Source: an uncultured Actinomycetes bacterium (GTDB taxonomy: Bacteria > Actinomycetota > Thermoleophilia > Gaiellales > JAICJC01). Taken from it: a stretch of DNA of 64,000 nucleotides. A model generated the notes under the pieces. It did no database searches and was not told the origin of the DNA. It was given only the letters and a program-made list of their open reading frames with translations. Each line of letters opens with the position of its first letter. The stretch's first letter is position 1. Below are positions 26,965 to 61,093 of this stretch, in pieces. The translations under genes were made by a program, and so were the position numbers. The stretch covers positions 25,958 to 89,957 of the forward strand of contig CAVSNF010000004.1 in the NCBI GenBank assembly GCA_963729195.1. The letters run 5' to 3'.

Positions 26965-27054
26965 CGGAGAGGGCGGGATTCGAACCCGCGAACGAGGAAA
27001 CCCCCGTTACGCGATTTCCAGTCGCGCTCCTTAAGCCAACTCGGACACCTCTCC
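26965..27054 (-). tRNA. tRNA-Ser (anticodon GGA)
   Basis: Reverse complement GGAGAGGTGTCCGAGTTGGCTTAAGGAGCGCGACTGGAAATCGCGTAACGGGGGTTTCCTCGTTCGCGGGTTCGAATCCCGCCCTCTCCG. It is 90 nt with a long variable arm. Anticodon loop is CTGGAAA. Confidence 0.93.
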
Positions 27055-27584: not shown

Positions 27585-27865
27585 ATGGCCCGCGACCGTG
27601 CTAAGCGGGGAGCTAGCGGTACCCTGTTTCCGGCAAGCCGCTCTAGCCGGGCCGAATTCCCACCCGAGGGGTGAAGGGTTCGGGAACGGGTTCGTGCGTT
27701 CGGTGTTGATCGCCAGGTCCCGCGCAACGGAGGCTTGCGAACCGCGTCAGGTCCGGAAGGAAGCAGCGCTAAGCAACGTCATCCGGGTGCCGCGGGCTAG
27801 CCTGGCAGGAGCCTGCGCCACGAGCACCACCCGAGTCCACCGCCACAGAGGTGGGTGCACGGTCA
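27585..27865 (+). ncRNA. ffs: Signal recognition particle RNA, long (Alu-domain-containing, Bacillus-type) form; ends +/- 10 nt
   Basis: Domain IV motif GTCAGGTCCGGAAGGAAGCAGC at about 27746-27767. The 5' part GTGCTAAGCGGGGAGCTAGCGGTACCCTGT...GCCGCTCTAGCCGGGCCGAAT closely resembles the B. subtilis scRNA Alu domain as I recall it. Terminal pairing GACCGTGC/GCACGGTC. Classic position just upstream of dnaX. Confidence 0.8.
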
Positions 27866-27908: not shown

Positions 27909-29548
27909 GTGTCTGCGCTCTACCGCACCCATCGGCCGCAGGACTTCGCCCAGTTCGAGCCGGCCCAGGCGCACGTCGTCCGCACCCTGCGAAACGCGAT
28001 CGAGATGGACAGGGTGGCGCACGCGTACCTGTTCGCCGGTCCGCGCGGCACCGGCAAGACGTCGATGGCCAAGATCCTGGCCAAGTCGCTCAACTGCGAG
28101 CGCGGGCCGACCGTCTCGCCGTGCCTGGTGTGCGAGGCCTGCCGATCGATCCATGACGCCACCTCGATCGACGTGATCGAGCTCGACGCCGCCAGCAACC
28201 GCGGCATCGACGACATTCGAGAGATCGTGGACAAGGTCGCCCAGCGGCCGGCCGCCGGTCGCCGCAAGGTGTACATCGTGGACGAGGCCCACATGCTCAC
28301 CAAGGAGGCGTCCAACGCCGTCCTGAAGACGCTCGAGGAGCCCCCCGAGCACGTCATCTTCGTGCTCTGCACCACCGAGATGCAGTCGATGCTGCCGACC
28401 ATTCGCAGCCGCTGCCAGCGGTTCGTGTTCCAGCGCCCGGGGTTGCCGGAGATCGGCGCGGTGCTGCATCGCATCGCCGAGACCGAGTCGATCGACATCG
28501 ACCCCGCCGCGATCGGACTGGTGGCGCGCGCCGCCGGCGGCAGCTTCCGCGACGCGGTGTCGACGCTCGACCAGCTCTCCACCGCCTGTGACGGGCGGAT
28601 CGGCGTCGCCGACGTGCGCGAGCTGCTCGGCACCACCGACACCGAAGTGCTGTTCCAGACGCTCGACCTGGTCGCCGACGGCGATGCCGGCGGCTGCCTG
28701 CGGGTGATCGCAGCCCAGGTCGACGGCGGAGCCGACCTGGCGACGCTGGTGACCGACCTGCTGGGACACCTGCGCGCGCTGTTCCTGTGCCAGCAGCTGG
28801 GCGATCCGCCCGAGGAGGTGGCCGCCACCGACGACGAGCGGGCACGGCTGCTGACCCAGGCCGACCGGTTGCAGCCGGCCACGGTGCATCGCCTGGTCGA
28901 TCTGCTGCGCGACGCCAATGATCAGGTGCGCGAAGGCGCCGACCCGCGGCTTCCGCTGGAGCTGGCGCTGGTGCGCATCTGCCGGCCGGCCGGTGAGCTC
29001 GAGCTGCAGGCCTTGGAGCAGCGGATCGCCCGCCTGGAGGCCGGCAGCCCCGCGCCCGCGCCGGCCCCTGCGAAGCCGGCGGCGGAACCGTCCGCCGGCC
29101 CGCCGACGGACGAGCCCCCGGCTGCGACGCCACCACCACCCCCCCGCCGATCGCCGCGTCGCAGACCAACCTGGACGTCGTCCCCGAGCAGTGGCGCGAC
29201 ACCATCCTGCCCGAACTCTCGCGCCGCTCCAAGCCGCTGGCGGCGCTGATGCAACACGCCAACGAGGTCGAGGTCAAGGGTGACCAGGTCGTGATCAGCT
29301 TCCCCCAGTCCAAGTCGTTTGCCCGCGCGGGGACGGACACGCCGGCGAACCGCAAGGTGCTCGCCCAGGTGCTGGCGATGGCCGCCGGCGGAACGGTCGA
29401 CCTCAGTCTGAAGGTGTCGGACGACCCCGAGCCCGAGCCGGAGCACCAGGCCGAACCCGAGCACCAGCAGACCCTGTCCGAAGACGAGTTCTTGACCCAC
29501 GTGAAGCACACGTTCGATGCCCGCGAGATCGAGGAGCCGAAGCGATGA
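27909..29548 (+). CDS. dnaX: DNA polymerase III subunits gamma/tau; frame change inside a C7 run (29139-29145)
   Basis: GTG start. ...AHAYLFAGPRGTGKTSMAKILAKSLNCE..., ...VYIVDEAHML..., SRC motif TIRSRCQRF. After the poly-Pro/C7 run the other frame reads ...IAASQTNLDVVPEQWRDTILPELSRRSKPLAALMQHANEVEVKGDQVVISFP... through to 29548. Confidence 0.9.
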
Positions 29549-29868
29549 CGAAGATCGATCCCCAGAAGATGATGGCCCAGCTCGGGCAGATGCAGAAGCA
29601 GATGGAGGTCGCTCAGGAGGAGCTCAAGACCCAGTTCGTCGAGCACTCCGCCGGCGGCGGCGCGGTCACAGTGAAGGCCTCCGGAGCGCTCGAGATCGTG
29701 GAGATCACGATCAAGCCCGAGGCGATCGACCCCGACGACGCCGAGATGCTTCAGGATCTGCTCGTGAGTGCCGTCAACGGCGCCATCACCGCCGCCCAGG
29801 CATTGCAGCAGCAGCGAATGATGTCGGGCATGGGCGGTCTCGGGGGGCTCGGAATCCCGGGCATGTAG
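29545..29868 (+). CDS. ybaB: YbaB/EbfC family nucleoid-associated protein
   Basis: Intact 107-aa ORF: ...MMAQLGQMQKQMEVAQEELKTQFVEHSAGGGAVTVKASGALEIVEITIKPEAIDPDD... ATGA overlap with dnaX. Confidence 0.9.
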   Translation: MTKIDPQKMMAQLGQMQKQMEVAQEELKTQFVEHSAGGGAVTVKASGALEIVEITIKPEAIDPDDAEMLQDLLVSAVNGAITAAQALQQQRMMSGMGGLGGLGIPGM

Positions 29869-29883
29869 CCCGGGCTCGAAGTT

Positions 29884-30476
29884 GTGTACGCACCGTCAGT
29901 TGACAACCTGATCACCCAGCTCGCGCGGCTGCCCGGGATCGGCCAGCGGAGTGCCCAGAGGCTGGCGTTTCACCTGCTCAAAGCGACTCCCGAGGAGGCG
30001 GGCGCGCTGGCCGCAGCGATCACCGAGGTGAAGGAGCGGATCGGCTTCTGCGAGCGCTGCTACAACCTGGCCGAGGGGCCGCTGTGCACGATCTGCGCGG
30101 ACACCCGGCGCGACGTGTCCCTGATCTGCGTGGTCGAGGATCCCTCGGATGTGATCGCGCTGGAACGCACGCACGAGTACCGCGGCACCTATCACGTGCT
30201 GGGCGGGGCGCTGTCACCGATCGACGGCGTCGATCCCGACCACCTGCGCATCGCCGAGCTGATGGCTCGGATCGAGAGCTGGCCAGCGTGACCGAGGTGC
30301 TGCTGGCCACCAACCCCACCATGACCGGCGAGGCGACCGCCAACTACATCGCCGACCGGCTGCGCGACCGCACCACCGTCACCCGGCTGGCCAGCGGCCT
30401 GCCGGTCGGCGGCGACCTGGAGTACGCCGACGAGGTCACCCTCGGCCGAGCACTCCAAGGCCGCCGCGCGATCTGA
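29884..30476 (+). CDS. recR: Recombination protein RecR; apparent frameshift near 30277
   Basis: ...[20 protein letters not shown]..., C4 zinc finger [16 protein letters not shown], Toprim ...[17 protein letters not shown]... The C-terminus continues in ORF 30084..30476 (...[22 protein letters not shown]...). TGA stop lies inside palindrome copy 3. Confidence 0.9.
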
Positions 30477-30503
30477 ATAACGGTGCCAGGCACCGTTATT
30501 CAC
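30474..30503. repeat. Palindromic element copy 3: TGAATAACGGTGCC-A-GGCACCGTTATTCAC
   Basis: Read directly. Its first three bases are the recR TGA stop. Confidence 0.95.
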
Positions 30504-30516
30504 CACCGGCGCCCGC

Positions 30517-30549
30517 GTGAATAATCGGTGCCAGGCACCAATTATTCAC
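30517..30549. repeat. Palindromic element copy 4, variant form: GTGAATAATCGGTGCC-A-GGCACCAATTATTCAC (one C/A mismatch)
   Basis: Read directly, 13 nt after copy 3. Contains the TGA stop (30546-30548, minus strand) of gene 30546..31159. Confidence 0.92.
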
Positions 30550-31159
30550 GAGCAGTTGGCGCGCAGGTACTGTCGAACGAGCGTGAAGTCGCCGCGATGG
30601 GCGGCAGCGATCTCGCGGTCGGTCGCCCGCAGCGAGCTCTGGTCGTAGCCGCCGGCATCCTCGGACGCGCCGGCGGGGTGCAGCGGCATCATCCGCCGCA
30701 GCGTCAACGCCTCGGCGTATGAACTCCGACACGGCCGCGTCGTTGCCTGCGGCAGCAGCCGAATTCCAGTGCGCATACCACGCGCACTGCGCCTGGCCGA
30801 TGGCCGCGATCAGCGCGAACTGCTGCCCGTAGAGCGCGTGCGGCCGGCAGGTGCAGCGGCCTCCAGTGCGCACCCGGCGGCAGATCGATCGTCTTGGTGA
30901 TCGCGGCGAACTGGCGGTTCACGGTGGGTGCGTGGTCGTCGCCGGGAATCGAGGAGTACACGGTGGCAGCACCGGCCAGCACGGCAACGGCAACGGTCGC
31001 GGCCAGCAGCAGCGGCCGGCGGCGTCGCCGAGAACTCGTCCGCGAAACTGCCGAGCGGAGAATCCGGTCGCGCATCGCGGCGGCATCGGCGGACGGCAGC
31101 GGTCGCAGCTGGGTGGCGGGATCGTGCCGCCGGATGAGGGTGATGACGTCGTCAGGCAT
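30546..31159 (-). CDS. Hypothetical membrane protein downstream of an ECF sigma factor (anti-sigma candidate); two apparent frameshifts (about 30721, 30840)
   Basis: MPDDVITLIRRHDPATQ...RRRRRPLLLAATVAVAVLAGAATVY (one TM) / ...YGQQFALIAAIGQAQCAWYAHWNSAAAAGNDAAVSEF / YAEALTLRRMMPLHPAG...DFTLVRQYLRANCS*. The start overlaps the sigma-factor stop (ATGCCTGA). Confidence 0.4.
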
Positions 31160-31687
31160 CGGTTCCAAGACCTCCATGGGCAATCACGCGTGTGTTGGCA
31201 ACCGGCGGCGCGTCTGCCTCGGCAAGTTCGTGCGCCAGCCGGCGGCGGGCGCGCCTCAGCCGCACCGCCACGTTGGCGCGGGTACAGCCGATCACGACCG
31301 CGATCGCGTCACGGTCGAGCCGATCCCACGCGGTCAGCAGCAGCACCTCGCGGTCGCGCTCGCCGAGCCGTCCCAGCGCCGTCCAGAGCGCGTCGCGCTC
31401 ACCGACCTGATGGGTGGGATCGGGCGTCGTCACCGGTTCGCGCACCAGCCGACGGGTGAGCTGGTCGCGGCGGCGATCGCCGCGGCGCTGATTCAGCCGG
31501 ATCTTGCGAGCCACGCCGATCAGCCACGGCAGCGGCTCGGCGGGGATGTCGTCCAGCCGCCGCCATGCCACCAGAAACGTCTCGGCGGTGACGTCGTCTG
31601 CGAGCTCGGGGTCGCGGCGCCACAGGTAGGCGCGCACGGCCTCGCGGTGCGTGTCGAACAGTTGCTCGAACCATGCTTCTCGTTGGT
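31152..31687 (-). CDS. ECF-type RNA polymerase sigma-70 family factor
   Basis: TTG start 31687 preceded by GGAGGA. ...FEQLFDTHREAVRAYLWRR...DDVTAETFLVAWRRLDDIP... (region 2) and ...REVLLLTAWDRLDRDAIAVVIGCTRANVAVRLRRARRRL (region 4). Confidence 0.85.
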
Positions 31688-31821
31688 CGGGGGGCAATCG
31701 CCTTCCTCCAGTTCGGGACAGTCTGCCATCACATGTCCGGCAGCCCGGCGGGCATTGCACCCAAGCGACGCGATTACGACCGGCATCTGGGAAACTGCGC
31801 TGGGTGATCGACGCCACCTCC

Positions 31822-33174
31822 ATGCATCGCTACACCGACGTCACCGAGCGACTGGCCCAGTCGATCCTGGCCTACACGCGCGATCGGCTGCGGCTGAACC
31901 CGGTGCCGCTGGACGGTCCGCGCACGCCCGCCGAGCTGGCCGCTGCGGTCGGCGCGACGGTCACCGAGGAGGGCCTGGGCGGCCCCGAGGCGCTGCGAAT
32001 CTTCGACGAAGTGCTCTCCAATGCGTGCGTCTCGGTCGACAACCCGCGCTATCTGGCGTTCATCCCCGCGGCTCCGACCGAGTCGGCAACGCTGTTCGAC
32101 CTGGTCGTCGGCGCCTCCTCGATCTACGGCGGCAGCTGGCTGGAGGGCGCGGGGGCGGTGTACGCCGAAAACCAGGCACTGCGCTGGATCGCCGACCTGG
32201 CCGGCATGCCCGATCAGGCCGGCGGCTGCTTCGTCGCCGGCGGGACGATCGGCAATCTCTCGGCACTGGTCGCCGCCCGCTACACCTATCTGGCCGAGCG
32301 CGGCGGCGAGCGGCCGGCCCGGCTGCGGATCGCCGCCACATACGAAGCCCACTCCTCCATCAACTCGGCCGCCCAGGTGATGGACGTCGACGTGCTCCCG
32401 GTCGAGGCCGACGCAGACGGGCGGCTGACCGGCAAGAACCTGGAAGCCGCCATCGCCGAGCACGGCGACGACGGCCTGTTCGCCGCTGTCGCAACCTCAG
32501 GCACCACCAACCTCGGCATCGTCGACGACCTCGCCGGTGTGGCCGAGGTGTGCGACCGCCGCGACCTGTGGATGCACGTCGACGGCGCCTACGGCGGCGC
32601 CGCGCTGGCAGCGCCCTCCGTGCGGGCAAAGTTTCAGGGGATCGAGCGAGCCGACAGCTTCATCGTCGACCCACACAAGTGGCTGTTCGCGCCGTTTGAC
32701 TGCTGCGCGCTTCTGTACCGCCGCCCACACCTGGCCCGCGCCGCGCACACGCAGCACGCCGGCTATCTCGACGCGATCCAGTCCGAGACGGAATGGAACC
32801 CATCCGACTACGCCGTGCACCTGTCTCGCCGAGCGCGGGGATTGCCGTTCTGGTTCTCGCTGGCGGTGCACGGCACCGCCGCCTACTCGATCGCGATCGA
32901 GTCCACCCTGGCGCTGACCCAGGCCGCCGCCAAGGAGATCCGCGACCGTCCCGAGCTCGAACTCCTCACCGAGCCGGAGCTGTCGGTGCTGTGCTTCAAA
33001 CGAACCGGATGGACACCCGAGGACTACAACCGCTGGAGCGCCGACATGCTCGAGCGGGGGTTTGCGTTCGTCACGCCGACGGTCCACAAAGGCGAGATCG
33101 TCACCCGGTTTGCGATCGTCAACCCACGCACCACCCTCACCGACATCAAAGCCATCCTGGATACGATGCGGTGA
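31822..33174 (+). CDS. Pyridoxal phosphate-dependent group II amino-acid decarboxylase
   Basis: Intact from ATG 31822 (450 aa): ...NPRYLAFIPAAPT..., ...ATSGTTNLGIVDDL..., PLP-lysine motif SFIVDPHKWLFAPFDC. Confidence 0.85.
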   Translation: MHRYTDVTERLAQSILAYTRDRLRLNPVPLDGPRTPAELAAAVGATVTEEGLGGPEALRIFDEVLSNACVSVDNPRYLAFIPAAPTESATLFDLVVGASSIYGGSWLEGAGAVYAENQALRWIADLAGMPDQAGGCFVAGGTIGNLSALVAARYTYLAERGGERPARLRIAATYEAHSSINSAAQVMDVDVLPVEADADGRLTGKNLEAAIAEHGDDGLFAAVATSGTTNLGIVDDLAGVAEVCDRRDLWMHVDGAYGGAALAAPSVRAKFQGIERADSFIVDPHKWLFAPFDCCALLYRRPHLARAAHTQHAGYLDAIQSETEWNPSDYAVHLSRRARGLPFWFSLAVHGTAAYSIAIESTLALTQAAAKEIRDRPELELLTEPELSVLCFKRTGWTPEDYNRWSADMLERGFAFVTPTVHKGEIVTRFAIVNPRTTLTDIKAILDTMR

Positions 33175-34444
33175 ATGGCGGCCTCACACCCTTCCACTGA
33201 GCCATCCAGCCAGCGCGTGCTGGTGATGAAGTTCGGCGGCTCGTCGGTGGCCGACGCCGACAAGATCCGCCGGGTGGCGGCAGCGGCTCGTCTCCGCCCA
33301 CGAGGGCGGCCGGCGGGTGGTCGGCGTGGTGTCGGCGATGGGCACGACCACCGATCAGCTGGTGGCGCTGGCCGCAGACGTCTCGCCGCGCCCGCACCCG
33401 CGCGAGATGGACATGCTGCTCTCCACCGGCGAGCGCATCTCGGCTGCGCTGTGTGCGATGGCGATCGAGGATCTCGGTCACCGGGCCGTGTCGCTGACCG
33501 GTTCACAGGCGGGGATCGTGACCGACACCGTCCACACCAAGGCCAAGATCGTCGAGATCCGGCCGCGCCGCATCGAAGAGGCCTTGGCCCGCGACGAGAT
33601 CGTGCTGGTGGCCGGCTTCCAGGGCGTGTCAACCGCCTACGACGTGACCACGCTGGGCCGCGGCGGCTCCGACACCACCGCCGTCGCCCTGGCCGCCGCG
33701 CTGGGGGGCGACTGCGAGATCTACACCGACGTCGACGGCGTCTTCAGCGCCGATCCCCGGATCGTCCCCAGCGCGGTCAAGCTGTCGGAGGTATCGGCCA
33801 CCGAGATGCTCGAGATGGCCGGATCGGGCGCCCGGGTGCTGCAGCTGCGGTCGGTCGAGTTTGCCCGCAACCACGCGGTCGCCATCCATGTACGGTCAAC
33901 GTTCTCCGACGCAGAGGGAACCTGGATTCGAGAGGACGGAACGATGGAAGACGCCATCATCTCCGGTATCACCCACACCACCGACGAGGCCTACGTCACG
34001 CTCACCGACGTGCCCGACAAGCCCGGCACCGCCGCCAGCATCTTCAATGCGGTCGCGGCCGCCCACATCAACGTCGACACGATCATCCAAAACGCCGTCA
34101 CCCACGGCGACGCCGACGTCACCTTCTCGATCCCGACCGACGACCTGCCGCTGATGACCGACACCATCGAGCACCTGTGCCGCGACCTCGGCCTGCATTG
34201 GCGGGTGGACGACACCGCCGCCAAGGTGAGCCTGATCGGTGCCGGCATGAAGAGCCACCCGGGCGTGGCCGCCAAGATGTTCCAGACGCTGGCCGAGCAC
34301 GACATCAACGTGCGCATGATCGCGACCTCGCCGATCAAGGTGTCCTGCGTGATCCCCCGCGACAAGGTCAGCCAAGCCGTGTCGGAGCTGCACGAGGCGT
34401 TCCGAGCGGAGATCGAACTCAGCCACGGAGCGCCCAGTGCCTGA
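33175..34444 (+). CDS. ask: Aspartate kinase; apparent frameshift near 33285
   Basis: ...[21 protein letters not shown] (ORF 33175..) joins [25 protein letters not shown]...[18 protein letters not shown]... plus two ACT domains (ORF 33317..34444). Confidence 0.9.
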
Positions 34445-35475
34445 TCTCAAAGTCGCTGTCGTAGGCGCGACCGGCGCCGTCGGACCAGAAGTGCTGCGGC
34501 TGCTGGAGGAGCGCAAGTTTCCGGCGACCGAGGTGGGTGGCGTTCGCGTCCGCCCGCTCGGCCGGCAAGCGGGTGGCCTTCGCAGGCTCGCAGCTGGAGG
34601 TGCAGGAGCTGACCGCCGACGCCCTCGAAGGCTTCGACCTGGCGCTGTTCTCGGCGGGTGCCGGCACGGCTCGCGCGTTCGCGCCCGAGGCGGTCGCGCG
34701 CGGCTGCGTGGTGATCGACAAGTCCAGCGGCTTTCGGATGGATCCCCAGGTGCCGCTGGTGGTGCCCGAGGTCAACCCCGAGGCGACCGACTCCCACAAC
34801 GGCATCGTGGCCAACCCCAACTGCTCCACGATCCAGTTCGTGGCGGTGCTCAAGCCGCTGCTCGACGCCGTCGGCCTCGAGCATGTCACCGTGTCCACCT
34901 ACCAGGCTGTCAGCGGCACAGGTACCAAGGCCATGGACGAACTCAGCGCCCAGACCCGCGCAGTGGCTGCCGGCGAGCCCGTGGAGGTGAACGTCTACCC
35001 GCATCAGATCGCGTTCAACGTGCTCCCGCACTGCGACGTGTTCGACGACGACGGGAACACCCAGGAGGAGACCAAGCTGGTTCGCGAGACCCGCAAGATC
35101 CTGGGTCAGGCCGACCTGCCCATCTCCGCCACCTGCGTGCGAGTGCCGGTCTGGCGCGGCCACTCCGAAGCCGTCTGGATCGAGACCGCCGAGCCGCTTT
35201 CGCCAGAGGACGCCCGCCGGCTGCTGGCGGCGGCGCCGGGAGTGACGGTGGTCGACGATCCGGCGACCAACAGCTATCCCACGCCGCTGGCTGCCGACGG
35301 CCAGGATCAGGTGTTCGTCGGCCGCATCCGTCGTGACGAGTCGCGCCGCAACGGCCTCGCGCTGTGGGTGGTGGCCGACAATCTCCGCAAGGGCGCCGCC
35401 ACCAACGGCGTGCAGATCGCCGAGCTGCTGGTCGAGCGCCAGCTGGTACGGGTTCCGGGGGCGGCAGCGGCGTAG
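34437..35475 (+). CDS. asd: Aspartate-semialdehyde dehydrogenase; apparent frameshift near 34535
   Basis: [33 protein letters not shown] joins [15 protein letters not shown]...[11 protein letters not shown]... (active-site Cys) ...[13 protein letters not shown]... GTG start overlaps the end of ask. Confidence 0.9.
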
Positions 35476-35477
35476 GT

Positions 35478-35927
35478 ATGCAGCATCGACGCGGCACCCT
35501 GTGCCCCGTGTGCCTGGGGGAGGTACGACGGGGCGTATGTGATCACCACGGCCTGTGGTCTCCCCGCCAGCTCCTGACGATGCTCGACCGCCGCCACGCG
35601 ATCCGGCATACGTGGCATCCGTTCACCCCGATCCTCCACGCCTGTCCCCGCTGCCTGGGCGAGGTGGCTGAGAGCCGCTCCGGCGACTACGGCTGCATCG
35701 ACCACGACGGGCATGGGCCGTTCCAGCTGGACGAGCTGCTCGGCCCGAGCGCCCAGCGCGACGGCGCCATCGAGCGCGAACGGCTCGCGCGGGCACGCGA
35801 GCGCAAGCGAGACGCCGCCCCAACCGTGACTCTGCCCAAGCTCCACATCCCCAACCTCACGCACGTGACCCGCATCGCCGCCGCCGGTGCGGTGATCGTC
35901 ACGACCCTCTTCTTCCTCGCAAGGTGA
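35478..35927 (+). CDS. Hypothetical protein with duplicated CPxCLGEV zinc-ribbon-like motif and C-terminal TM helix
   Basis: MQHRRGTLCPVCLGEVRRGVCDHHG... and ...HACPRCLGEVAESRSGDYGCIDHDGHG...; the tail IAAAGAVIVTTLFFLAR is hydrophobic. TGA stop lies 3 nt before palindrome copy 5. Confidence 0.5.
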   Translation: MQHRRGTLCPVCLGEVRRGVCDHHGLWSPRQLLTMLDRRHAIRHTWHPFTPILHACPRCLGEVAESRSGDYGCIDHDGHGPFQLDELLGPSAQRDGAIERERLARARERKRDAAPTVTLPKLHIPNLTHVTRIAAAGAVIVTTLFFLAR

Positions 35928-35930
35928 CGG

Positions 35931-35961
35931 GTGAATAACGGTGCCAGGCACCGTTATTCAC
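35931..35961. repeat. Palindromic element copy 5: GTGAATAACGGTGCC-A-GGCACCGTTATTCAC
   Basis: Read directly, between convergent gene ends (TGA 35925-35927 on +, TAG 35962-35964 on -). Confidence 0.95.
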
Positions 35962-36646
35962 CTAGGCAACCTTGGTGGCGGCGATCGGCTGGGTGGTGGG
36001 CTGCTGTGAGCCGCCGGCCGGCTCCACGGTGACAGCGACGGTGTCGCCGGGATGGGCTTTGGTTTCGAGGTCGACGCTGGTGCGACCGCCGGCGAACACT
36101 CCCGCTGAGATCGGTTTTCCGCCTGGAGGAATCACCCAGGCCTGATAGGTCTTGCCGCTGGGAGCCGCGGACGCGTTCGCGACCAGGGTGGCTTGGCCGT
36201 CGGCGTCGACGAACACTGTGCCGACGTGCGGAAGCGCGGCGCTGGTCTGGCTGCCATAGACGATGTCCTGGGTGTTGGTGAGCGAGTTGCGGAGAGAGAC
36301 GTTCCAGGCCACCAACCCGATCACGACAACCGCCAGCACCGGAGCGGCGATCCGCGCAAACCGCGGCCACCAGCCGGGTGAGCGGTCGGAACGACGCTCG
36401 GCTGGTGCCTCGGGCTGAGGCACCGGCGGCGGGCTCAATCGCGGCCATCAGTCGGTCGCGCAACTCGGGCGGCGGCGCCACCTCGGGGGTGGCCAGCGCC
36501 AGCAGCGCGGTGGTCGACTCGGCCTCGCGCAGGCGAGCCATGCAGGCAGAGCACTCGGACACGTGCGATTCGACCTGCGCAGCCTCCTCCGGCGTGAGTG
36601 CTCCCAGCACGTGGGCGGGAATCAGCTCGTCGACGTGGTCGTCCAC
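35962..36646 (-). CDS. rskA: Anti-sigma-K factor RskA-like (zf-HC2 N-terminus + RskA C-terminal domain); apparent frameshift near 36435
   Basis: N-terminus ...LGALTPEEAAQVESHVSECSACMARLRE... (ORF 35954..36646) joins ...PGWWPRFARIAAPVLAVVVIGLVAWNV...GKTYQAWVIPPGGKPISAGVF... (ORF 35962..36438). Confidence 0.8.
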
Positions 36647-37272
36647 TGATCCCCCCCTCTGAACCCCGCCTCGTCCAACGCTTCCTGCAGCGCCTTCAGC
36701 GCCGCGAACGTGCGGCTCTTGATCGTCCCCACCGGCACCGACAGCATCTCTGCCAGCTCCGACTGCGAGTAGCCGCCGAAATACGCCAGCTCGATCACCT
36801 CTCGATGGGTGGCGGGCAGACCGGCCATGGCCTCGCGGATCTGCCCGCGAGCCGCCGACATCCAGGCGAGCTGATCGGGGCCCGGCTCCGTGCTGGGCAC
36901 CTCGGGCCGGTCATCATCGAGCTGGTCCGCGCGGCGTCGCTGCTCTCTGCGCACGAGATCCACTGCCTTGTTATGTGTCATCGTCAGAATCCATGTCGAT
37001 GCCTGTCCTCGTGCCGGATCAAATGCCGCGGCCTTTCTCCACACCGCGAGAAACGCGTCCTGCACCACATCGGCCGCGAGATCGCGGTCGCGCACAATCC
37101 GTACAGCCAGCGAGTACGCCGCCTCGCCGTACCTGTCGTACACCTGTGCGAACGCCTCCCGGTCGCCCTGGCGCACACGCTCCAGCAGTTCGCGATCCGG
37201 TGGGGTGTTCGGTGAGAGCTCCTTCGTGACGTTGGTTGTCTGGCATTCGTTCCTGGGCCTTGACCGGTTCAA
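36622..37272 (-). CDS. sigK: ECF sigma factor, SigK-like
   Basis: ...ELLERVRQGDREAFAQVYDRYGEAAYSLAVRIVRDRDLAADVVQDAFLAVW... and ...REVIELAYFGGYSQSELAEMLSVPVGTIKSRTFAALKAL. The proposed TTG start 37272 overlaps the upstream gene's TGA (TTGA). Start uncertain. Confidence 0.85.
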   Translation of the reverse strand: MNRSRPRNECQTTNVTKELSPNTPPDRELLERVRQGDREAFAQVYDRYGEAAYSLAVRIVRDRDLAADVVQDAFLAVWRKAAAFDPARGQASTWILTMTHNKAVDLVRREQRRRADQLDDDRPEVPSTEPGPDQLAWMSAARGQIREAMAGLPATHREVIELAYFGGYSQSELAEMLSVPVGTIKSRTFAALKALQEALDEAGFRGGDQWTTTSTS

Positions 37273-39978: not shown

Positions 39979-41068
39979 ATGAAGCTCCTCCACATCGCCG
40001 ACGTCCATCTCGACCGCGTGTTTCGAGGCGCCGAGACGCGGCACCACGCCGACCGTCGCCGAGCCGAGCTGCGCGATGCTCTGACGCGCGCGTTGACGCT
40101 CGGTCGTGACCAGGGCGTGGATGCCGTCTGCATCGCCGGAGACACCTACGAGCACGACTTCGTGCGGGAGGACACCGTCGAGTTCCTGCGCAACGCGCTG
40201 GCCGACGCCCGCGTGCCCGTGCTGATCACACCGGGAAACCACGACCCCTACATGCCCGGCTCGGTGTGGCAGCGCACCAGCTGGCCTCACAACGTCCACG
40301 TGTTCACGCACGACCGGATCGAGCCGTTTCCACTCGATCTCGAGGTGACGGTGTGGGGAGCGGCGTTCACCGCCAAGCATTGCTCCACCAACGCGGTCAC
40401 GGATTGGCGCGCGCCGCAGGACGGCGGCAACCATCTGCTCCTGATCCATGGAGCCCTCACCGGCGAGCAGTGGGCTGACGAGCCCGGGCACCGTCCGCTG
40501 ACGCGCGAGCAGCTGGTCGCCACGGGCGCGCGGTTCGTGATGCTCGGCCATTTTCACGACGGCCGCAGCGACGCCTTCCTGGCCTACCCCGGTTCGCTCG
40601 AGCCGCTGGGCTGGGGCGAGCGGTTCGGCACCCACGGGGCGGCGGTGCTCGAGACGCACAGCGACGGCACGGTCACCTGGGAGTTCCACGAGATCGCCCG
40701 GCGGCGCTACGCCGAGACCACCCTCGACGTCTCCGGCGCGGGAACGTCCACCCAGATCGAGGGCGCCCTGGCGGCGGCAGCCGCGGAGTTCGCCGGCAGC
40801 TCCCTGCGAGCAATCCTCACCGGACTGGTGGAGCCCTCCTGCGAGATCGATCCCCGGTTGCTGGCCGAGCGCTGCTGGCCAGGGCCTGGCCGAGCTGGTG
40901 GTGATCGACCACACCCGACCCGCCTATGACCTCGCGGCGATCGCTCACGAAGGCTCGGTGCGAGGCCGGTTCGTGGCCCGACTGCTGGCGACCGACGATC
41001 CGCTGGCAACCGATGCGGCGATCGCCGGCCTGCGGGCGATGGACGGGCACACGGAGCTGGTCGCATGA
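39979..41068 (+). CDS. SbcD/Mre11-like DNA-repair exonuclease (metallophosphoesterase; YhaO/SbcF-like); apparent frameshift near 40878
   Basis: MKLLHIADVHLDRVF..., ...VCIAGDTYEH..., ...ITPGNHDP..., ...MLGHFHD... The C-terminus continues as QGLAELVVIDHTRPAYD...GHTELVA*. The stop overlaps the next ATG (ATGA). Confidence 0.8.
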
Positions 41069-43232
41069 GGATCACCACGCTTCGCCTGCACGGGTTCGGG
41101 CGGTTCCGCGAGCGGGAATTCGAGTTTGGGCCCGGCCTCACGATCGTGCACGGGCCGAACGAGGCCGGCAAGTCGACTCTGCACGCGGCGCTGTCTGCAT
41201 CCACCTTCGGGCTCGCTCCCAGCGGTCGCCGGCTGGCCAAGCACACCGCGGTGATCGAGCGTCACCGACCTTGGCAGAGCGACCGCTACGCCGCCACGGT
41301 CGAGCTCGAGCACAGCAGCGGGCGCCGCCTGCGGATCGATTGGGACTACGATCGGCAACAGTTTGCCGTGATCGATTCGGCGACCGGCGACGACCTCTCA
41401 TCCGCGCACGGTGCCGGCACCAACACCGACGTTCTGGCCGAGACGCTGCACGGCGTCGGGCGCGACGTGTACCTGCGGGTGGGGTCGATCGGTCAGGACG
41501 AGCTGGCCCAGATCGTGACCGGTGCGACCGACGTGCGCGAGGCGATCGAGCGCGCCGCCGGCCAGTCCCAGTCGGATTCGAGCAGCCAGACTGCGGTCGA
41601 CCGCCTGCGGGCGCGCCGCAAGCAGCTGGTCGGCCTCAACCGCAAACCAGAGCAACCCGCTGCCTCGCGCGGAGGCACAGGTCGCCGAGCTTCGAGCACA
41701 GCTCTCCGACGCCGTCGGCACCCGAGCCGAGGCCGAACAGCTGTCGGCCGAACGCGATCAGGCCGCCGAGCAGGCCGGCGCACTCGAGCGCCGCATCCGC
41801 GAGCTCGAGTTCGCGCTCGAAGGGGCGCGCTGGCGATCGCTGCAGGCCACCGTCAACCGAGCCGAGGGGCTCAATCGCGAGCTGCAGGCGGCCACCGCCG
41901 CAGTGCAAGGGTCGGTGGCGCTGGCGGAGTTCGCCCCGATCCCCGGGGTTGCCGGAGCGCGGGAACGATACGAGCATCTGATGGCGGAGCGCGACCGCAC
42001 CCGCCCGCGCCAGGCGGCGGTCGCAGGGAAGTTGGAGGAGCTGCGAATCCCCGCGGTCGAGTCCTGCCAACGCTCCCGGACCGTCTCGGGCCGGCTGGGC
42101 GGTTGCCGCCGTGGGGGCGGTGGCCGCGGCCGTAGGCCTGGTGCTCTCGACGCTGCTGGTGGTGTTGGGTGTGCTGGTGCTGGTGGCCGGAGTTGCGGCG
42201 GCGACCGTCACCCGCCGAGCCTACGATGCCCGCCGCGAAGCGGCCCGCGAGCAGCGCGACCGTGAGGCTGCCGATCGCCGCGATCGCGCAAAAGGTCTCG
42301 AGATCGAGTTGGCCAAGATCGCAACTGTTGACGCTGAGTACGAGGCCACCGCCGAGCGTCTGGCCGAGATGCTCGAGAGCGACGACACAAGCCCCCAGGG
42401 GATCTCCCAGGCGCTGGCCACCTACGACGAGCATGTGCGGGCCCACACGTCCAGGATCGATGCCGAGCGTCGCCGCAAGCAGGCCGAGGCCGAACTCGAC
42501 ACGCTGCTCAACGGTGGCAGCCTGGAACAGGTGCAGCAGCGCTGCGCCGAGCTGGAGCGGTCACTCAACGGGCACCGCAACGCGGCCGGTGCAGAACGCG
42601 ACCCCGACGACATCGAGGCGGAGCTTCACCGGCTGCGGTCGTCGGCCCGGCAGACTGCAGTCGACGCGAGCGGCCTGCGAGCCACCGCCGCCGAACGGCT
42701 GCGGCTGGTACCGGACACGGGGGCGCTGCAGGAGCAGCTGGATGCGGCCGAGGACGAGCTGACCCGCCTGCAGCGGCTGGAAGGCGTGCTGAAGCTGGCC
42801 GAGAACGAGCTGCAGGAGACGGTGGCGGAGACGTACCGCGACTTCGCCCCGCGGCTGAACGCTGCGCTCGAGCGAAACCTGGTGCGAGCCACGGGCGGCC
42901 GCTACAGCAGGGCGTTCGTGGCCGACGACCTGTCGGTGCGCCTGGAAGCCCCCGAGACCGGTGCGGTAATCGACCTGGCGCAGGTCTCAGCCGGCACCCA
43001 ACGGCTGGTGTACCTGATGCAGCGACTCGAGCTGGTGCAGCTGATCGCCCCCAGCAGCGAACCGCTGCCGGTGCTGCTGGACGAGCCGTTCGCCCATCTC
43101 GACCGAGAACGTATGCGCGCGGCACTGGAGGTGCTGACCGACCTGGCCGGCGACCGCCAGATCGTCGTCTTCACCACCCAGCGCGACGCCGCCGAACTCG
43201 CCCCCGACTCCACCACCCTGCTCGAGTTGTGA
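41065..43232 (+). CDS. SbcC/YhaN-like AAA ATPase with coiled-coil and central hydrophobic segment; two apparent frameshifts (about 41648, 42075)
   Basis: Walker A HGPNEAGKSTL. Long Ala/Glu/Arg coiled-coil. Hydrophobic AVAAVGAVAAAVGLVLSTLLVVLGVLVLVAGVAAA. C-terminal SAGTQRLVYL signature and PVLLDEPFAHLD Walker B. TGA stop lies inside palindrome copy 6. Confidence 0.75.
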
Positions 43233-43259
43233 ATAACGGTGCCAGGCACCGTTATTCAC
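43229..43259. repeat. Palindromic element copy 6: GTGAATAACGGTGCC-A-GGCACCGTTATTCAC
   Basis: Read directly. Bases 43230-43232 are the TGA stop of the SbcC-like gene. Confidence 0.95.
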
Positions 43260-43274
43260 CACCGACGATCGCGA

Positions 43275-43306
43275 GTGAATAATCGGTGCCTGGCACCAAT
43301 TATTCA
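43275..43306. repeat. Palindromic element copy 7, variant form: GTGAATAATCGGTGCC-T-GGCACCAATTATTCA
   Basis: Read directly, 15 nt after copy 6. Carries the same C/A arm mismatch as variant copy 4. Confidence 0.92.
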
Positions 43307-43329
43307 AGCGCCAAGTCAACCGTCAGCTG

Positions 43330-43429
43330 CAAGGATCGAGCGAGCGGGCGGAGCGGAGGCGTGGCAAAGCCACGTTGAGCACCGCACCGCCGCGTGGGAC
43401 GCCGCCAGAACCGGCGCGGACCAGCCTCA
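43330..43429. repeat. Second repeat family, copy A (78-nt conserved core 43330-43407 + variable 13 nt + conserved CCAGCCTCA containing the recQ stop)
   Basis: Manual alignment to 61122-61198 gives 3 substitutions and 1 single-base indel. Contains an imperfect long hairpin GGGCGGAGCGGAGGCGTGGC-AAA-GCCACGTTGAGCACCGCACCGCC. Confidence 0.85.
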
Positions 43430-45154
43430 GAGCTTGCGCACCAGCGGATACGGCCCCTCGGTCTTTCGCAGCGTCCCGGCCGCGATCATCCCGTCGATGG
43501 CCGCCATCACGTCGTCCTGGGTCATGTGTACCAGCGCGCCGTGGCTGTCCAGCCGGTCGTGGCCGGCGCCCTTGAGCGCCTTGGCGCCGGAGCCACGCAG
43601 GATCGCCGTGAGCCGGGAGCGGCCGACCGCGCCGTTGGTCTCGTCCACCGCCTGCAGCACCGCCGCTGAGACGTCCACCCCCGGGATCGCAGGCGCGACC
43701 GTCGACGCGTGCCCGTCACAGCAGACCTCGTCGGGCCGCGGCGACGGCTCGTCACCGAAGTACTCCAGCAGCACCTTGCGGCGGCAGCCCGCCGTGGTGG
43801 CATAGGCATCGATCGCCTTCAACCGGTCCCACCGCTGCCGCTCCACCCGGCGACCGGCGATCATCCCAGCCGCAACATGCTTGGGCGACAGCCGCGGCGC
43901 CGCCAGCCGCCCCGAGACATGTCCGGAGGGAGCCGGAAACAGCTCCAACGCGCCCGCCCGCTCCAGCACCGCCAGCGCCACCCGCGGCTCGTCACCGGGA
44001 AGCTCGCGATCGGCCGACGCGAACAGGCCCTCGGGCGAGGCCACGGTCGCCAGCGCTCGGTGCATCCCGTTGAGATCACCCGCTGAGAGCTTGGCGCGAT
44101 TGATGAAGTACACGATCAGACCCTTGTCGGCGGGGCTGTACAGGAGCGTGCAGCGAGCCGGGAGCCCGTCTCGTCCCGCGCGACCGGCCTGCTGGTAGTA
44201 CTCCTCCGGCGATGCCGGCAGCGTCCAATGCACCACCGAGCGCACATCGGCCTTGTCGATGCCCATGCCGAACGCGGTGGTGGCCGCAACCACTTCCAGA
44301 TCGCCGGCCAGGAACCCGCGCAGCGTCTGTGATCGCGCATCCTGGGTGAGGCCGGCGTGGTAGGGCTCGGCCCTCACCCCGGCGGCTCGGAGCCGGTCGG
44401 CGACCTCCACACAGGTCTTTCGGCGGCCGCAGTAGACCACCGCCGGCAGCCGGTCGGGGACGCGCAGAAGCGATGCCAGCACCTTGGTCTTGCCGGCATC
44501 ACCGGCCACCCGGATCACCTCGAAGAACAGGTTGGCGCGATCGAAGCCGGTGGTCGGCGTGGCCGGATCCCGCAGACCGAGTGCGGCCACGATGTCCTTG
44601 GCCACGCGCGGGGTGGCGGTGGCCGTCAGTGCAATCGTGGGCGGCGAGCCCAACCGCTCGCGCACGTCGGCCAGCCGGCGGTAGTCCGGCCGGAAGTCGT
44701 GACCCCACTCCGAAAGGCAATGGGCCTCGTCCACCGCCAGCCGCGAGACGTTGGTGGCCGCCAACGTGTCGAGAAATCTTCGACTCGAGAACCGCTCCGG
44801 GGCGACGTACACCAGTCGCGTACCACCCTCGCCGATCCGCTCCAGCGTGGCGGTGACGTCCTCGCGCGACATGCTCGAGGCGAGCATCTCGATGCCGTCG
44901 AACCCGCGCGCGACCAGCGCCGCGTGCTGATCCTGCATCAACGCGATCAGTGGCGAGACGACCACCGTCAGACCTGCTCCGACCACCGCCGGCAGCTGGT
45001 AACAGAGCGACTTGCCCGACCCGGTGGGCATGATCGCGAGCACGTCTCGACCCGCCAGCACGGCCTCCACCGCCTCGCGTTGGCCCGCTCGAAACTCCTC
45101 GAAGCCGAACCGGCTTCGCAGCTCCTGATCGATGTCGATGGTCGTTGCGCCCAC
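43427..45154 (-). CDS. recQ: ATP-dependent DNA helicase RecQ
   Basis: ...FRAGQREAVEAVLAGRDVLAIMPTGSGKSLCYQLPA..., DEAHCLSEWGHDFRPDY, ...TAFGMGIDKADVR..., YYQQAGRAGRDG, and a C-terminal HRDC-like region. GTG 45154 is the proposed start (ORF extends to 45277). Confidence 0.9.
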   Translation of the reverse strand: MGATTIDIDQELRSRFGFEEFRAGQREAVEAVLAGRDVLAIMPTGSGKSLCYQLPAVVGAGLTVVVSPLIALMQDQHAALVARGFDGIEMLASSMSREDVTATLERIGEGGTRLVYVAPERFSSRRFLDTLAATNVSRLAVDEAHCLSEWGHDFRPDYRRLADVRERLGSPPTIALTATATPRVAKDIVAALGLRDPATPTTGFDRANLFFEVIRVAGDAGKTKVLASLLRVPDRLPAVVYCGRRKTCVEVADRLRAAGVRAEPYHAGLTQDARSQTLRGFLAGDLEVVAATTAFGMGIDKADVRSVVHWTLPASPEEYYQQAGRAGRDGLPARCTLLYSPADKGLIVYFINRAKLSAGDLNGMHRALATVASPEGLFASADRELPGDEPRVALAVLERAGALELFPAPSGHVSGRLAAPRLSPKHVAAGMIAGRRVERQRWDRLKAIDAYATTAGCRRKVLLEYFGDEPSPRPDEVCCDGHASTVAPAIPGVDVSAAVLQAVDETNGAVGRSRLTAILRGSGAKALKGAGHDRLDSHGALVHMTQDDVMAAIDGMIAAGTLRKTEGPYPLVRKL

Positions 45155-55721: not shown

Positions 55722-56216
55722 ATGACGATCCGCGACCGCATCAATGGGCAACTGGTGGTTCTGGCCCCGCTCAACGTCGCGGACGCCCCCGCCTGGGCGC
55801 GCTGGCTGAACGATCCCGACACGACCCGCTACCTGTACGGCAGGCGGGGCGCCCCCGAGGAGCAGCCCACCGTCGACCAGATGCTCGAGTGGGGGCGGCG
55901 GATGCTGGCCGACCCGTGGCGGATGGCCGTGGGGCTGGAGGTACGAGGCGGCGGCACGGTGATCGGAAACGCACGCCTGACCCCGCACGGGCCGCGCCGG
56001 GCGCGGTTCTCGATCGTGATCGGCGAGGCCGAGCATCGCGGCCGCGGCATCGGCACCGAGGCCACCCGGATGATGGCCCAGCTCGGATTCGAGCGGCTCG
56101 ACCTGCGCGAGATCGTGCTGGACGTCGACCCCCGCAACGAAGCCGGCCGGCGCGCCTACCTGACCGCCGGCTTCACCCCCGGCCGCGGCGACTCCATGAC
56201 CCTCCGCCGTGAATAA
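55722..56216 (+). CDS. GNAT family N-acetyltransferase (RimJ/RimL-like)
   Basis: MTIRDRINGQLVVLAPLNVADAPAWARWLNDPDTTRYL...IGEAEHRGRGIGTEATRMMAQLGFERLDLREIVLDVDPRNEAGRRAYLTAGF... TAA stop lies inside palindrome copy 8. Confidence 0.8.
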   Translation: MTIRDRINGQLVVLAPLNVADAPAWARWLNDPDTTRYLYGRRGAPEEQPTVDQMLEWGRRMLADPWRMAVGLEVRGGGTVIGNARLTPHGPRRARFSIVIGEAEHRGRGIGTEATRMMAQLGFERLDLREIVLDVDPRNEAGRRAYLTAGFTPGRGDSMTLRRE

Positions 56217-56239
56217 CGGTGCCAGGCACCGTTATTCAC
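56209..56239. repeat. Palindromic element copy 8: GTGAATAACGGTGCC-A-GGCACCGTTATTCAC
   Basis: Read directly, between the GNAT stop (56214-56216, inside) and the reconstructed citrate synthase stop (56241-56243). Confidence 0.95.
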
Positions 56240-59526: not shown

Positions 59527-61041
59527 ATGAATCGATCGGCCCGACTGAAGCAGCTGGCGGGCCAATCGTTCGTGTACGGCCTCGGCGGGCTGGTCTCGCG
59601 GGCTGTCGGGATCGTGCTTCTGCCGGTGTATTTCCGGCACGTCTCGCGCGTCCAGTTCGGCGATGTCGAGCTGATCATGTCGACCATCACGCTGGCGGCG
59701 ATCGTCTTTCGGTTGGGTCTGACGAACGCGATGTTCCGCTTCTCGTTCGATAACCCGGGCGACGGAAACCGCGAGAAGACGGTGCAGACCACGTTCACCT
59801 CGGTGATGATCCTATCCACCCTGGCGGTGATCCTGGGCCTGATCTTCCTCGATCCCCTGGCTCACGTTCTGGGCGGCCGGGCGCTCACGATCATCGGCCT
59901 GACCGGCCTTTGGGTGACGATGAACTTCGACATCGTCACCGGCATCTACCGGATCGAGCGGCGGCCCACCGCGTTCGTCGTGTACTCGCTGACGAACGTC
60001 GCAATCACGGTGGTGATGACGGTGCTTCTGGTGGTGCATTGGCACCACGAGGCCGCCGGGCTGATGATCGGCAACTTCTCCGGCACCTACGTCACCTACT
60101 TCCTGATGCTGATCGCCCGCCGCGACGTGATTGGGTTTCGGCTGTTCAATCGTGAGCTGTTACGCCGGATGCTGCACTTCTCGGTGCCCCTGATCCCCGC
60201 CGGCCTGGCCCTGTGGGCGCTGAACGTCGCCGATCGCTTCCAGGTCAAGTACCTGGGCTCGCCGGCGCTTCTAGGCTCGTACTCGGCGGCCTCCAAGATC
60301 GCGCTTTCGATCATGCTGCTGATCGCGGCGTTCCAGACCGCCTGGCCGGCCTTCGCCAACTCGATGCCGTCGGAGGACGAGACCCGCAAGGTGTATGCGG
60401 TGGTGCTGACGTACTGGTCGATGGTGATGGCCTGGGCGGTGGTGGCGATCAGCCTGGCGACCCCGACGTATGTGCACGTGGCGCTGCCCAAGTCGGTGTG
60501 GGACGCAGCGCCGGTGGTGCCGCTGCTGATGTTCGGGTCGGTGCTGTTCGGCGCCTACCTGATTCTCAACGCCGGGGTCAACCGCTCCAAGAAGACTCGC
60601 TTCACGCCGGTGGTGGCGACCACCGCGGCGCTCGTCAACGTCGGCATCAACTTCGCGCTGATCCCGTGGATCGGTATCGTCGGCGCAGGCGTCTCGACCG
60701 TGATCGGGTATGTGGTGCTGGTCTACCTGGGCTGGCGCAACGCCCAGCACTCCTACCCGGTGGATTACGAATGGAGCCGGGTGATCCGTACGGCCCTGGT
60801 AGCCGCGGCGTTCGTCCTGCTGTCGATGCTGGTGATTCCCGCCACCGGCTGGGTGGGAGTGCCGCTGCGGATCATCCTCGCGGTGCTCTTCCCGGTCGGA
60901 TTGGTGGCGACCGGAGTGGTTCACCGGGGCGAGGTCGGCCGGGTGCGCGACAACCTCAAGGCGATGGGCAAGCGCCGCAGCAAGGCAGCCGTGCTCGAAG
61001 CCGAAGAAGAGGAAGCGATCGAGGAAGAGCCCGTCGCCTGA
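59527..61041 (+). CDS. Polysaccharide/oligosaccharide flippase (Wzx/MOP superfamily) membrane protein
   Basis: Intact 504-aa ORF with about 12-14 TM helices and an acidic C-terminal tail. TGA stop lies inside palindrome copy 9. Confidence 0.78.
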   Translation: MNRSARLKQLAGQSFVYGLGGLVSRAVGIVLLPVYFRHVSRVQFGDVELIMSTITLAAIVFRLGLTNAMFRFSFDNPGDGNREKTVQTTFTSVMILSTLAVILGLIFLDPLAHVLGGRALTIIGLTGLWVTMNFDIVTGIYRIERRPTAFVVYSLTNVAITVVMTVLLVVHWHHEAAGLMIGNFSGTYVTYFLMLIARRDVIGFRLFNRELLRRMLHFSVPLIPAGLALWALNVADRFQVKYLGSPALLGSYSAASKIALSIMLLIAAFQTAWPAFANSMPSEDETRKVYAVVLTYWSMVMAWAVVAISLATPTYVHVALPKSVWDAAPVVPLLMFGSVLFGAYLILNAGVNRSKKTRFTPVVATTAALVNVGINFALIPWIGIVGAGVSTVIGYVVLVYLGWRNAQHSYPVDYEWSRVIRTALVAAAFVLLSMLVIPATGWVGVPLRIILAVLFPVGLVATGVVHRGEVGRVRDNLKAMGKRRSKAAVLEAEEEEAIEEEPVA

Positions 61042-61068
61042 ATAACGGTGCCAGGCACCGTTATTCAC
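61039..61068. repeat. Palindromic element copy 9: TGAATAACGGTGCC-A-GGCACCGTTATTCAC
   Basis: Read directly. Its first three bases are the flippase TGA stop. Confidence 0.95.
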
Positions 61069-61093
61069 CGAACGTCGATGTACGACTGACGCC

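Follow-up and report, generated by a model that had tools for sequence, protein, structure and literature searches.

A low-copy, non-coding hairpin repeat, probably mobile, at the 3′ ends of genes in Gaiellales-like soil actinobacteria

Why should two unrelated genes of one bacterium end in the same non-coding sequence? In a 64-kb stretch of actinobacterial DNA, called the window throughout, recQ and rsgA both lie on the - strand and both have their stop codon at the end of a sequence block that occurs twice. The recQ gene (43427-45151, with the frame open up to 45277) encodes 574-616 residues and stops at the TGA at 43427-43429; homologues bearing the name RecQ contain DEAD, Helicase_C and RQC domains. 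The rsgA gene (61217-62290) encodes 351-357 residues, stops at the TGA at 61217-61219 and has homologues named ribosome small subunit-dependent GTPase A. An exact-sequence look-up of the window RsgA gave no match, and its called start probably differs. MAFFT alignment of the two core blocks, 43330-43407 (copy A) and 61122-61198 (copy B), gave the three substitutions and single 1-nt indel that an earlier note on this DNA had counted by hand. A repeat finder delimits within them 64 ungapped nucleotides at 95% identity (family D4), and a 19-mer of the core has exactly two occurrences in the window, where 0.19 would be expected. Both copies end in CCAGCCTCA, as that note had also reported, and the TCA within it, read on the other strand, forms the TGA stop of recQ at copy A and of rsgA at copy B; the terminal sequence common to the two copies is CCAGCCTCAG.

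The 100-nt stretch at copy A folds on the + strand into the core hairpin as it had first been drawn, with an energy of -52.6 kcal/mol (z -3.5), and the stretch at copy B reaches -46.4 kcal/mol (z -1.7). The description of the repeat as non-coding holds: reading frames diverge past the indel, CAA in copy A corresponds to TAA in copy B, and there is no ATG in the hairpin, so that a coding reading was rejected. A tRNA or att-site fragment was rejected as well, no tRNA-like match being found at copy A or copy B. Upstream of copy A, an SbcC/SMC-like gene (41065-43232) is split into three frames (41065-42135, 41522-42265 and 42111-43232), whereas its orthologues at loci L014, L015 and L017 are single reading frames of 723-726 residues; the window gene thus has two frameshifts. 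It is either a pseudogene or the product of assembly indel errors, and the latter would also bear on the 1-nt indel between copies A and B.

When species-representative genomes were scanned once for a 21-nt core pattern, eight further copies came up in three soil MAGs (4+2+2), a lower bound as the pattern requires an exact match. These MAGs, MFD02134.bin.1.51, MFD08988.bin.2.30 and MFD02134.bin.3.227, are labelled 'uncultured Actinomycetes'. A ninth match, L009 in a Phycisphaeraceae genome, was rejected as a chance 21-mer match. With those of the window, ten copies are thus known at nine distinct loci in four genomes. They adjoin unrelated housekeeping genes, among them cytochrome b, purH and rarA/mgsA, and number two to four per MAG by exact core match, too few for a burst-type repeat. 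Judging by the named RecQ and RsgA homologues, the carriers would be a Gaiellales-like lineage near Gaiellales, a soil group at the genus level. Dozens of public runs from soil, wetland and peat contain words of the repeat, and so do sediment metagenomes. Chance likeness or a local segmental duplication in one genome would suit the fact that the window holds only two copies. This reading has next to no probability, given an expectation by chance of about zero, eight more copies at unrelated loci in three other MAGs and the many public runs that contain the repeat words.

Other searches returned little. Neither covariance model R1 nor a short-word blastn search over the roughly 290 kb of locus DNA revealed additional or diverged copies, apart from a leader relic at window position 3182 that is described below, and about 170 kb of related DNA around recQ and rsgA orthologues contained no other copy. 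Two scans of JGI metagenomes gave no match and four matches, all four by chance in unrelated coding DNA, and a viral scan of IMG/VR gave none. As a separate observation, the window encodes a large-type bacterial SRP RNA (27596-27862, 175 bits) and two tRNAs (8016-8088 and 26965-27054); the large SRP form fits a deep-branching, Gaiellales-like actinobacterium rather than typical Actinomycetes.

Seven copies are intact, and the intact copies in the three related soil MAGs define a unit of about 138-150 nt instead of the roughly 100 nt proposed in the earlier note. The unit consists of a leader of 11-25 nt (CGACWGRCGCC) followed by a 127-nt hairpin, referred to as the rod, that reads CTGAGGC...GCCTCAG. 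The leader motif is unpaired and common to all seven; it is sometimes preceded by TCGATGTA, and several copies have TCGAYGTA upstream of it. The ends of the rod, CTGAGGC and GCCTCAG, are inverted repeats that are invariant in 6-7 of the seven intact copies, and pairing continues inward. The unit has one sharp end and one leader end, as soil contigs confirm by parting ways precisely at two points, the C of CTGAGG and CGACAG.

The consensus structure of the rod is a single hairpin of about 47 pairs. Fold energies of the intact copies range from -84 to -97 kcal/mol on the + strand and from -70 to -92 kcal/mol on the - strand, the + strand folding better by 5-18 kcal/mol. Standard pairs occupy 97.3% of the pair cells, against 26-45% when the 3′ partners are slid by one to three columns. 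Compensatory double changes were found at seven pairs, against 2.5 in shuffled alignments, and none of 500 shuffles reached the observed value. The outer stem exists in at least two co-varying versions, ...GCGGTGGTTCTGGC / GCCAGAACCGGCGC... (version 1) and ...CGTTGGGTCTGTGGC / GCCACAGACCCAACG... (version 2), each 5′ arm being complementary to its own 3′ arm. The compensatory changes stem mostly from one arm swap, shared by locus L007 and copy B, and therefore represent few independent events. The middle stem contributes an independent series (C-G, U-G, U-A), and an apical-stem G-C pair is swapped to C-G in soil metatranscriptome contigs, beside a variable apical loop. Across copies, the 76-nt core is 95-100% identical and the sub-terminal arms vary with compensation. 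Rather than a spacer, the 'variable' segment of 12-13 nt that had been noticed behind the core is thus the outer stem's 3′ arm, which pairs with the 5′ arm in the intact copies. Among the invariant pairs, four are G-U on the + strand and none is A-C. This is a weak hint that the + strand may be the folded strand, perhaps under selection; as all copies descend from one master sequence, the asymmetry amounts effectively to one observation.

Measured against the alignment of intact units, copies A and B are decayed copies of this larger hairpin repeat. Copy A (43329-43430, + strand; blastn and model R1) is truncated at its 5′ side and begins at rod position 27, running to position 127; it matches R1 positions 27-102 with 72 bits, and blastn covers positions 41-141 of the 141 of an intact copy at 98% identity. 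Its 3′ arm and terminus (43408-43430, + strand) consist of version 1 of the outer stem, GAACCGGCGCGGA, and of CCAGCCTCAG, in which the TCA at 43427-43429 is the recQ stop. The same arm is found in L001, L002 and L006, where its partner is GCGGTGGTTCTGGC. In copy A, that partner and the leader are absent, so that only the core hairpin can form. The 26 nt upstream were considered as a diverged 5′ arm and rejected: by eye they match at 9 of 26 positions, no better than chance, and the arm is treated as lost.

Copy B retains its leader, GTACGACTGACGCC (61080-61093, + strand), and a full-length rod, CTGAGGC...GCCTCAG (61094-61220, + strand), whose TCA at 61217-61219 is the rsgA stop. It matches positions 1-127 of R1, with 109 bits as against 138-148 bits for intact copies, and its outer stem has decayed. 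The 5′ arm (61094-61114, + strand), aligned with CTGAGGCGAAGGCCGTTGGGT of L007, now forms a local hairpin, CTGAGGCG-AAGGC-CGCCTCAG. It reads GCCGCCTCAGTCTG where L007, the closest relative, has GCCGTTGGGTCTG: CCTCAG stands in place of TTGGG and is the complement of the adjoining CTGAGG, so that the arm folds on itself. A template-switch mutation in a quasi-palindrome would be expected to produce such a change. The 'second hairpin' in the order of elements reported as common to both loci differs by locus: at copy A it is a second palindrome (43276-43306) and at copy B the decayed 5′ arm of the repeat itself.

Decay is not confined to the window. The orthologous copies L004 and L008, from two MAGs and with 90-94% identity in their flanks, are truncated from the same side to an unequal extent. 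Altogether, the outer stem has been lost in 3 of the 10 copies, which nevertheless persist. One soil contig carries a copy with a deleted core, joined at a GCGTCC direct repeat. At 3182-3203 of the window (+ strand), 9 nt past a palindrome, the leader GTACGACAGGCG, with 15 of 16 leader bases matching, is fused to GCCTCA. This is probably a rod-less relic in which the leader has been joined to the last rod bases; the probability that a comparable match falls by chance within some 20 nt of any of the nine window palindromes is estimated at about 1e-5.

Three orthologous sites exist in filled and empty form: the L005 site, recQ and rsgA. The L005 region is 91.6-94.2% identical to window 28999-36897; it has an intact copy at the place where the window has an empty site occupied by a second palindrome (30504-30551). 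At recQ, the repeat is missing in L014, L015 and L017. L014 is the closest relative there (protein 96%, DNA about 90% identical), and its recQ-to-SbcC-like gap measures just 27 nt, filled by one palindrome. At rsgA, the repeat is missing in L018-L022, of which L018 and L019 (98% protein and 93-95% DNA identity) have two palindromes and no rod. Positions 1-5129 and 6178-11056 of L019 form an inverted duplication of the rsgA-arginase-SDR-rhomboid block at the end of an ENA contig, probably a long-read assembly artefact. Comparison of the aligned filled and empty sites shows that the repeat has been gained or lost at single intergenic sites since species of about 90-95% DNA identity diverged. Among the candidates put forward in the earlier note, a mobile element is thus the best fit.

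The contact with stop codons that drew attention to copies A and B extends to most other copies. The terminal CTGAGG of the repeat supplies the TGA of a long reading frame in six of the ten, and in two the gene's own stop touches the repeat (TAG or TGA immediately before CTGAGG). CTGA is invariant at the gene-side junction in all ten, including these two in which it lies outside the gene. In these eight copies, the leader end faces a REP-like palindrome and the CTGAGG end overlaps or touches a stop codon; the orthologous pair L004/L008 has no converging gene. Palindromes adjoin the other copies too. The statement that the repeat supplies stop codons is literally true, although the TGA may be either the original codon or a replacement. 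RecQ ends in GTG TGA GCGC plus palindrome in L014 and in CTC TGA GGCTGG in the window; RsgA ends in TAC TGA GG both in L018 (followed by TGAATAAAAGG...) and in the window (followed by CTGGCC...). Since the repeat makes no difference to the codon at which either protein stops, it left their length unchanged. At the L005 site, presence of the repeat goes with a protein shorter by one residue.

The REP-like neighbour is a perfect palindrome, (GG)TGAATAACGGTGCCWGGCACCGTTATTCA(CC), with nine copies in the 64 kb of the window (3147-3173, 17047-17073, 30475-30501, 30519-30547, 35933-35959, 43231-43257, 43277-43305, 56211-56237 and 61040-61066). Its inner part varies in the window and in relatives (AATCGG, AATTGG, AAAAGG), and its word depth is 70-300 times that of flanking genes in soil metagenome and metatranscriptome assemblies. 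Its number varies among close relatives, with one or two at the recQ, rsgA and L005 sites. The spacer to the repeat ranges from 0 to 17 nt and seven of the nine window palindromes occur alone, which speaks against the suggestion that repeat and palindrome form a fixed composite. The TGA or TAA of the palindrome is often the stop of the flanking gene. In the window, the palindrome TGAATAACGGTGCCAGGCACCGTTATTCA at 43230-43258 provides the TGA of the + strand SbcC-like gene and is followed at 43276-43306 by the variant TGAATAATCGG...CCAATTATTCA (repeat-finder family D9); the one at 61039-61067 provides the TGA of a + strand polysaccharide-synthesis, flippase-like gene (orthologue Pfam PF01943). 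As palindromes, too, end + strand genes with TGA or TAA, the convergent-gene gap of 25-75 nt is, in these genomes, a slot for interchangeable elements that start with TGA.

Two further observations concern the palindromes. Direct repeats of the leader region flank the palindrome in L001 (~6085-6135; 12 nt, GACGCCCTGAGG), L003 (~5395-5480; 29 nt with 2 mismatches) and L006 (~2530-2600; about 16 nt, diverged); palindrome insertion accompanied by long duplications would be one possible cause, unequal recombination another. In soil metatranscriptome run X42, a 233-nt contig aligned to L006:2596-2717 has a third version of the outer arm, with GCA instead of TCA at its end. This relative of the rod has no leader and lies inside another 18-nt inverted repeat, AGAACCGGTTTCAGAATG...CATTCTGAAACAGGTTCT, so that the rod may insert into other palindromes in other organisms.

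We searched all seven intact copies for a target-site duplication and found no flanking direct repeat at any boundary, which excludes insertion as a classical cut-and-paste MITE. A search of roughly 290 kb of locus DNA (8-22 kb per locus) turned up neither a transposase nor a longer parent element that shares these ends. The lack of target duplication, the unrelated neighbour genes and the lack of a nearby transposase together favour a non-autonomous hairpin repeat mobilised in trans. Our main reading, to which we assign a probability of about 60%, is that of a low-copy, non-coding, non-autonomous mobile hairpin repeat residing in the 3′ UTRs of Gaiellales-like soil actinobacteria. A recombinase or transposase, encoded by the host or by an element and acting in trans, would recognise the hairpin and copy the repeat into new sites without target-site duplication. 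The stop-codon end would stay sharp because the gene needs its stop, while the other end would erode by deletion and palindrome turnover. Erosion from the non-gene end would explain both the loss of the 5′ arm in copy A and its scrambling in copy B. Several features sit uneasily with this reading. Conservation is the reverse of that of a typical MITE, the core being more conserved than the ends, and resembles that of a functional structured RNA or DNA; the four invariant + strand G-U pairs, with no A-C, hint at selection on one folded strand; and the copy number of two to four per MAG, by exact match, is low.

Expression data bear on whether the repeat acts as an RNA. Repeat words occur in many soil metatranscriptome assemblies, the contigs of which are strandless and may include DNA carry-over. 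In soil RNA assemblies, depth is 4-7 for the flanking gene, 50-170 for the rod and 650-1880 for the palindrome; in soil DNA assemblies, the corresponding values are about 6, 60-148 and 434-724. The repeat-to-flank ratio is thus about 10-30 in RNA and about 10-24 in DNA; as the ratios are alike, copy number accounts for the signal and there is no sign of an abundant dedicated RNA. Copies A and B have no common promoter or terminator consensus and no U-tract. Rfam at gathering threshold over the whole window reported nothing at either copy, and permissive Rfam scans, run on copy A and on an intact copy, yielded nothing beyond weak generic hairpin matches to miRNA precursors (E ≥0.08 over the rod). 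The absence of a match to a known RNA family, which the earlier note had left to be checked, is thereby borne out; its small RNA candidate fares poorly on the promoter, terminator and depth data. Lying between convergent genes, the repeat would be transcribed passively inside 3′ UTRs. By analogy with ERIC and Correia elements, its RNA duplex of ~50 bp would form a barrier to 3′ exonucleases and a likely RNase III substrate, and any effect on the mRNA ends of recQ and rsgA would be a side effect, not dedicated regulation.

A trans-acting family of small RNA genes, read from the + strand with the single-stranded leader as seed, would take advantage of the better + strand fold, of the four invariant G-U pairs without A-C and of the conserved 11-nt unpaired leader ahead of the rod. 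It is very improbable: the copies share no promoter-like site and have no terminator, the leader is missing from three of the ten copies and from a soil relative, the RNA is not enriched relative to DNA assemblies, there is no Rfam family and the strand asymmetry, inherited from one master, counts as a single observation. A selected cis-acting 3′-UTR element (a U-tract-independent terminator or insulator, an mRNA stabiliser or an RNase III site), for which mobility would merely be the means of spread, is a less remote but still doubtful explanation. Every copy lies at the 3′ end of a gene, in direct contact with the stop codon in eight of ten; conservation of the core goes with co-variation of the stems; soil metatranscriptomes show the apical-stem swap and variable apical loop; the hairpin is very stable on both strands, and repeat words are found in many metatranscriptome assemblies. 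Such an element would be retained for its effect on the transcript of the neighbouring gene; yet the recQ, rsgA and L005 sites are repeat-free in close relatives, the neighbour genes are functionally unrelated, three of ten copies persist without the outer stem, a U-tract is absent and RNA depth does not exceed the copy-number prediction.

Other routes of mobility were weighed against the trans-mobilised repeat. Single-strand or rolling-circle transposition of the IS200/IS605 or IS91 type, inserting 3′ of a fixed (C)TGA with machinery possibly shared with the palindromes, would make stop codons the commonest tolerated targets. It would accommodate the absence of target-site duplication, the invariant CTGA at one junction of all ten copies (outside the gene in two, after TAG and TGA), the contrast between one sharp and one frayed end, the hairpin that the element forms, and the REP-like palindrome always beside it. 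We regard it as unlikely, as no Y1 or Y2 transposase was found in the locus DNA examined, as the element is one long hairpin rather than two subterminal ones, and as CTGAGGC has its pairing partner, GCCTCAG, at the opposite rod end, which makes CTGA look like part of the element and not like a pre-existing target. Non-autonomous elements of the IS200/IS605 type (PATEs) have neither inverted termini nor a target duplication, carry a subterminal hairpin at each end and insert 3′ of a fixed tetranucleotide. The present repeat shows no duplication and a constant CTGA at one junction (10/10); it is a single long hairpin in which this CTGA is paired with the opposite end, and no TnpA gene was found in the locus DNA examined. 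Finally, precise stop placement, a conserved core with co-varying arms and the lack of target duplication stay unexplained, and we therefore keep a novel mechanism in mind, at rather long odds. The repeat would then be a functional structured nucleic acid (76-nt core, co-varying arms) that homes without duplication to the bases past TGA, beside REP-like palindromes, through an undescribed hairpin-dependent mechanism mediated by single-stranded DNA or RNA; or it would be a portable terminator or insulator of convergent genes.

Whatever the mechanism, the repeat can be compared with known small intergenic repeats. ERIC/IRU (RU-1; PMC2759123) is an imperfect palindrome of ~127 bp, non-coding, located in intergenic and 3′ regions, transcribed with its neighbours, variably present between related genomes and with no known transposase. 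The rod is alike in size, at 127 nt, and in shape, as a single long hairpin, and its presence varies among orthologous sites; its transcription is suggested by the metatranscriptome contigs alone. ERIC/IRU hosts are enterobacteria or vibrios, whereas the present host is a Gaiellales-like actinobacterium, and the present repeat differs by a core more conserved than the ends, few copies, one end against a stop codon and an unpaired leader.

Correia elements (CREE) of Neisseria are MITEs of 100-160 bp, non-coding, with terminal inverted repeats, dispersed and insertion-polymorphic; their hairpins, present in transcripts, are RNase III targets. Like classical MITEs, they have TA target-site duplications and well-conserved long terminal repeats. 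The present repeat shares with them and with classical DDE-type MITEs a small non-coding body (<300 bp; 138-150 nt), terminal inverted repeats and a dispersed, insertion-polymorphic presence. It departs from them in that the seven intact copies show no target-site duplication, only 7 bp of the termini are invariant, the sub-terminal arms vary and co-vary, and a conserved leader of 11 nt or more lies outside the left repeat.

REPs and REPINs are palindromes of 20-40 nt or inverted doublets of them, with hundreds of copies, a description that fits the neighbouring palindrome (nine copies in 64 kb) and not the 127-nt rod with its two to four copies per MAG. As in BIMEs, which combine REPs with other motifs, the rod stands beside one or two REP-like palindromes in a post-gene gap, and target-site duplication is absent in both; but the rod is not built from the palindrome, is four times longer and 10-50 times rarer, and keeps no fixed spacing from it. 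No gene for a RAYT (Y1 transposase) appears in the Pfam lists for DNA orthologous to window 33-64 kb. MIRUs (mycobacterial interspersed repetitive units) are likewise intergenic in actinobacteria and overlap, at their ends, the stop or start codons of the genes beside them, as the present repeat overlaps a stop codon; they are tandem direct repeats of 46-101 bp within operons, with small reading frames, whereas here there is one hairpin per site, mostly between convergent genes, and no reading frame. An integron attC site was also considered and rejected: the termini, CTGAGGC (5′) and GCCTCAG (3′), are in opposite order to RYYYAAC...GTTRRRY, the sequence is highly conserved, and copies are single and dispersed beside housekeeping genes, without arrays. 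A literature search found no paper with the sequence of the repeat and nothing relevant on repeats in Gaiellales. The repeat is a new family of a familiar type of small bacterial intergenic repeat; it lies outside ERIC/IRU, Correia-type MITEs and BIMEs because it has no target duplication, ends less conserved than its core, an unpaired leader, a low copy number and a different host.

To a lineage known almost only from metagenomes, these results add a repeat family that is delimited and structurally modelled, with filled as well as empty sites and with products of its decay. The gap of 25-75 nt between convergent genes emerges as a high-turnover slot in these compact genomes, with palindrome or rod as interchangeable occupants. 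For annotation, the repeat explains spurious reading frames across these regions, and stop codons there may belong to repeats. If targeting, and not selection, accounts for the placement at stop codons, an undescribed mechanism of insertion would be indicated.
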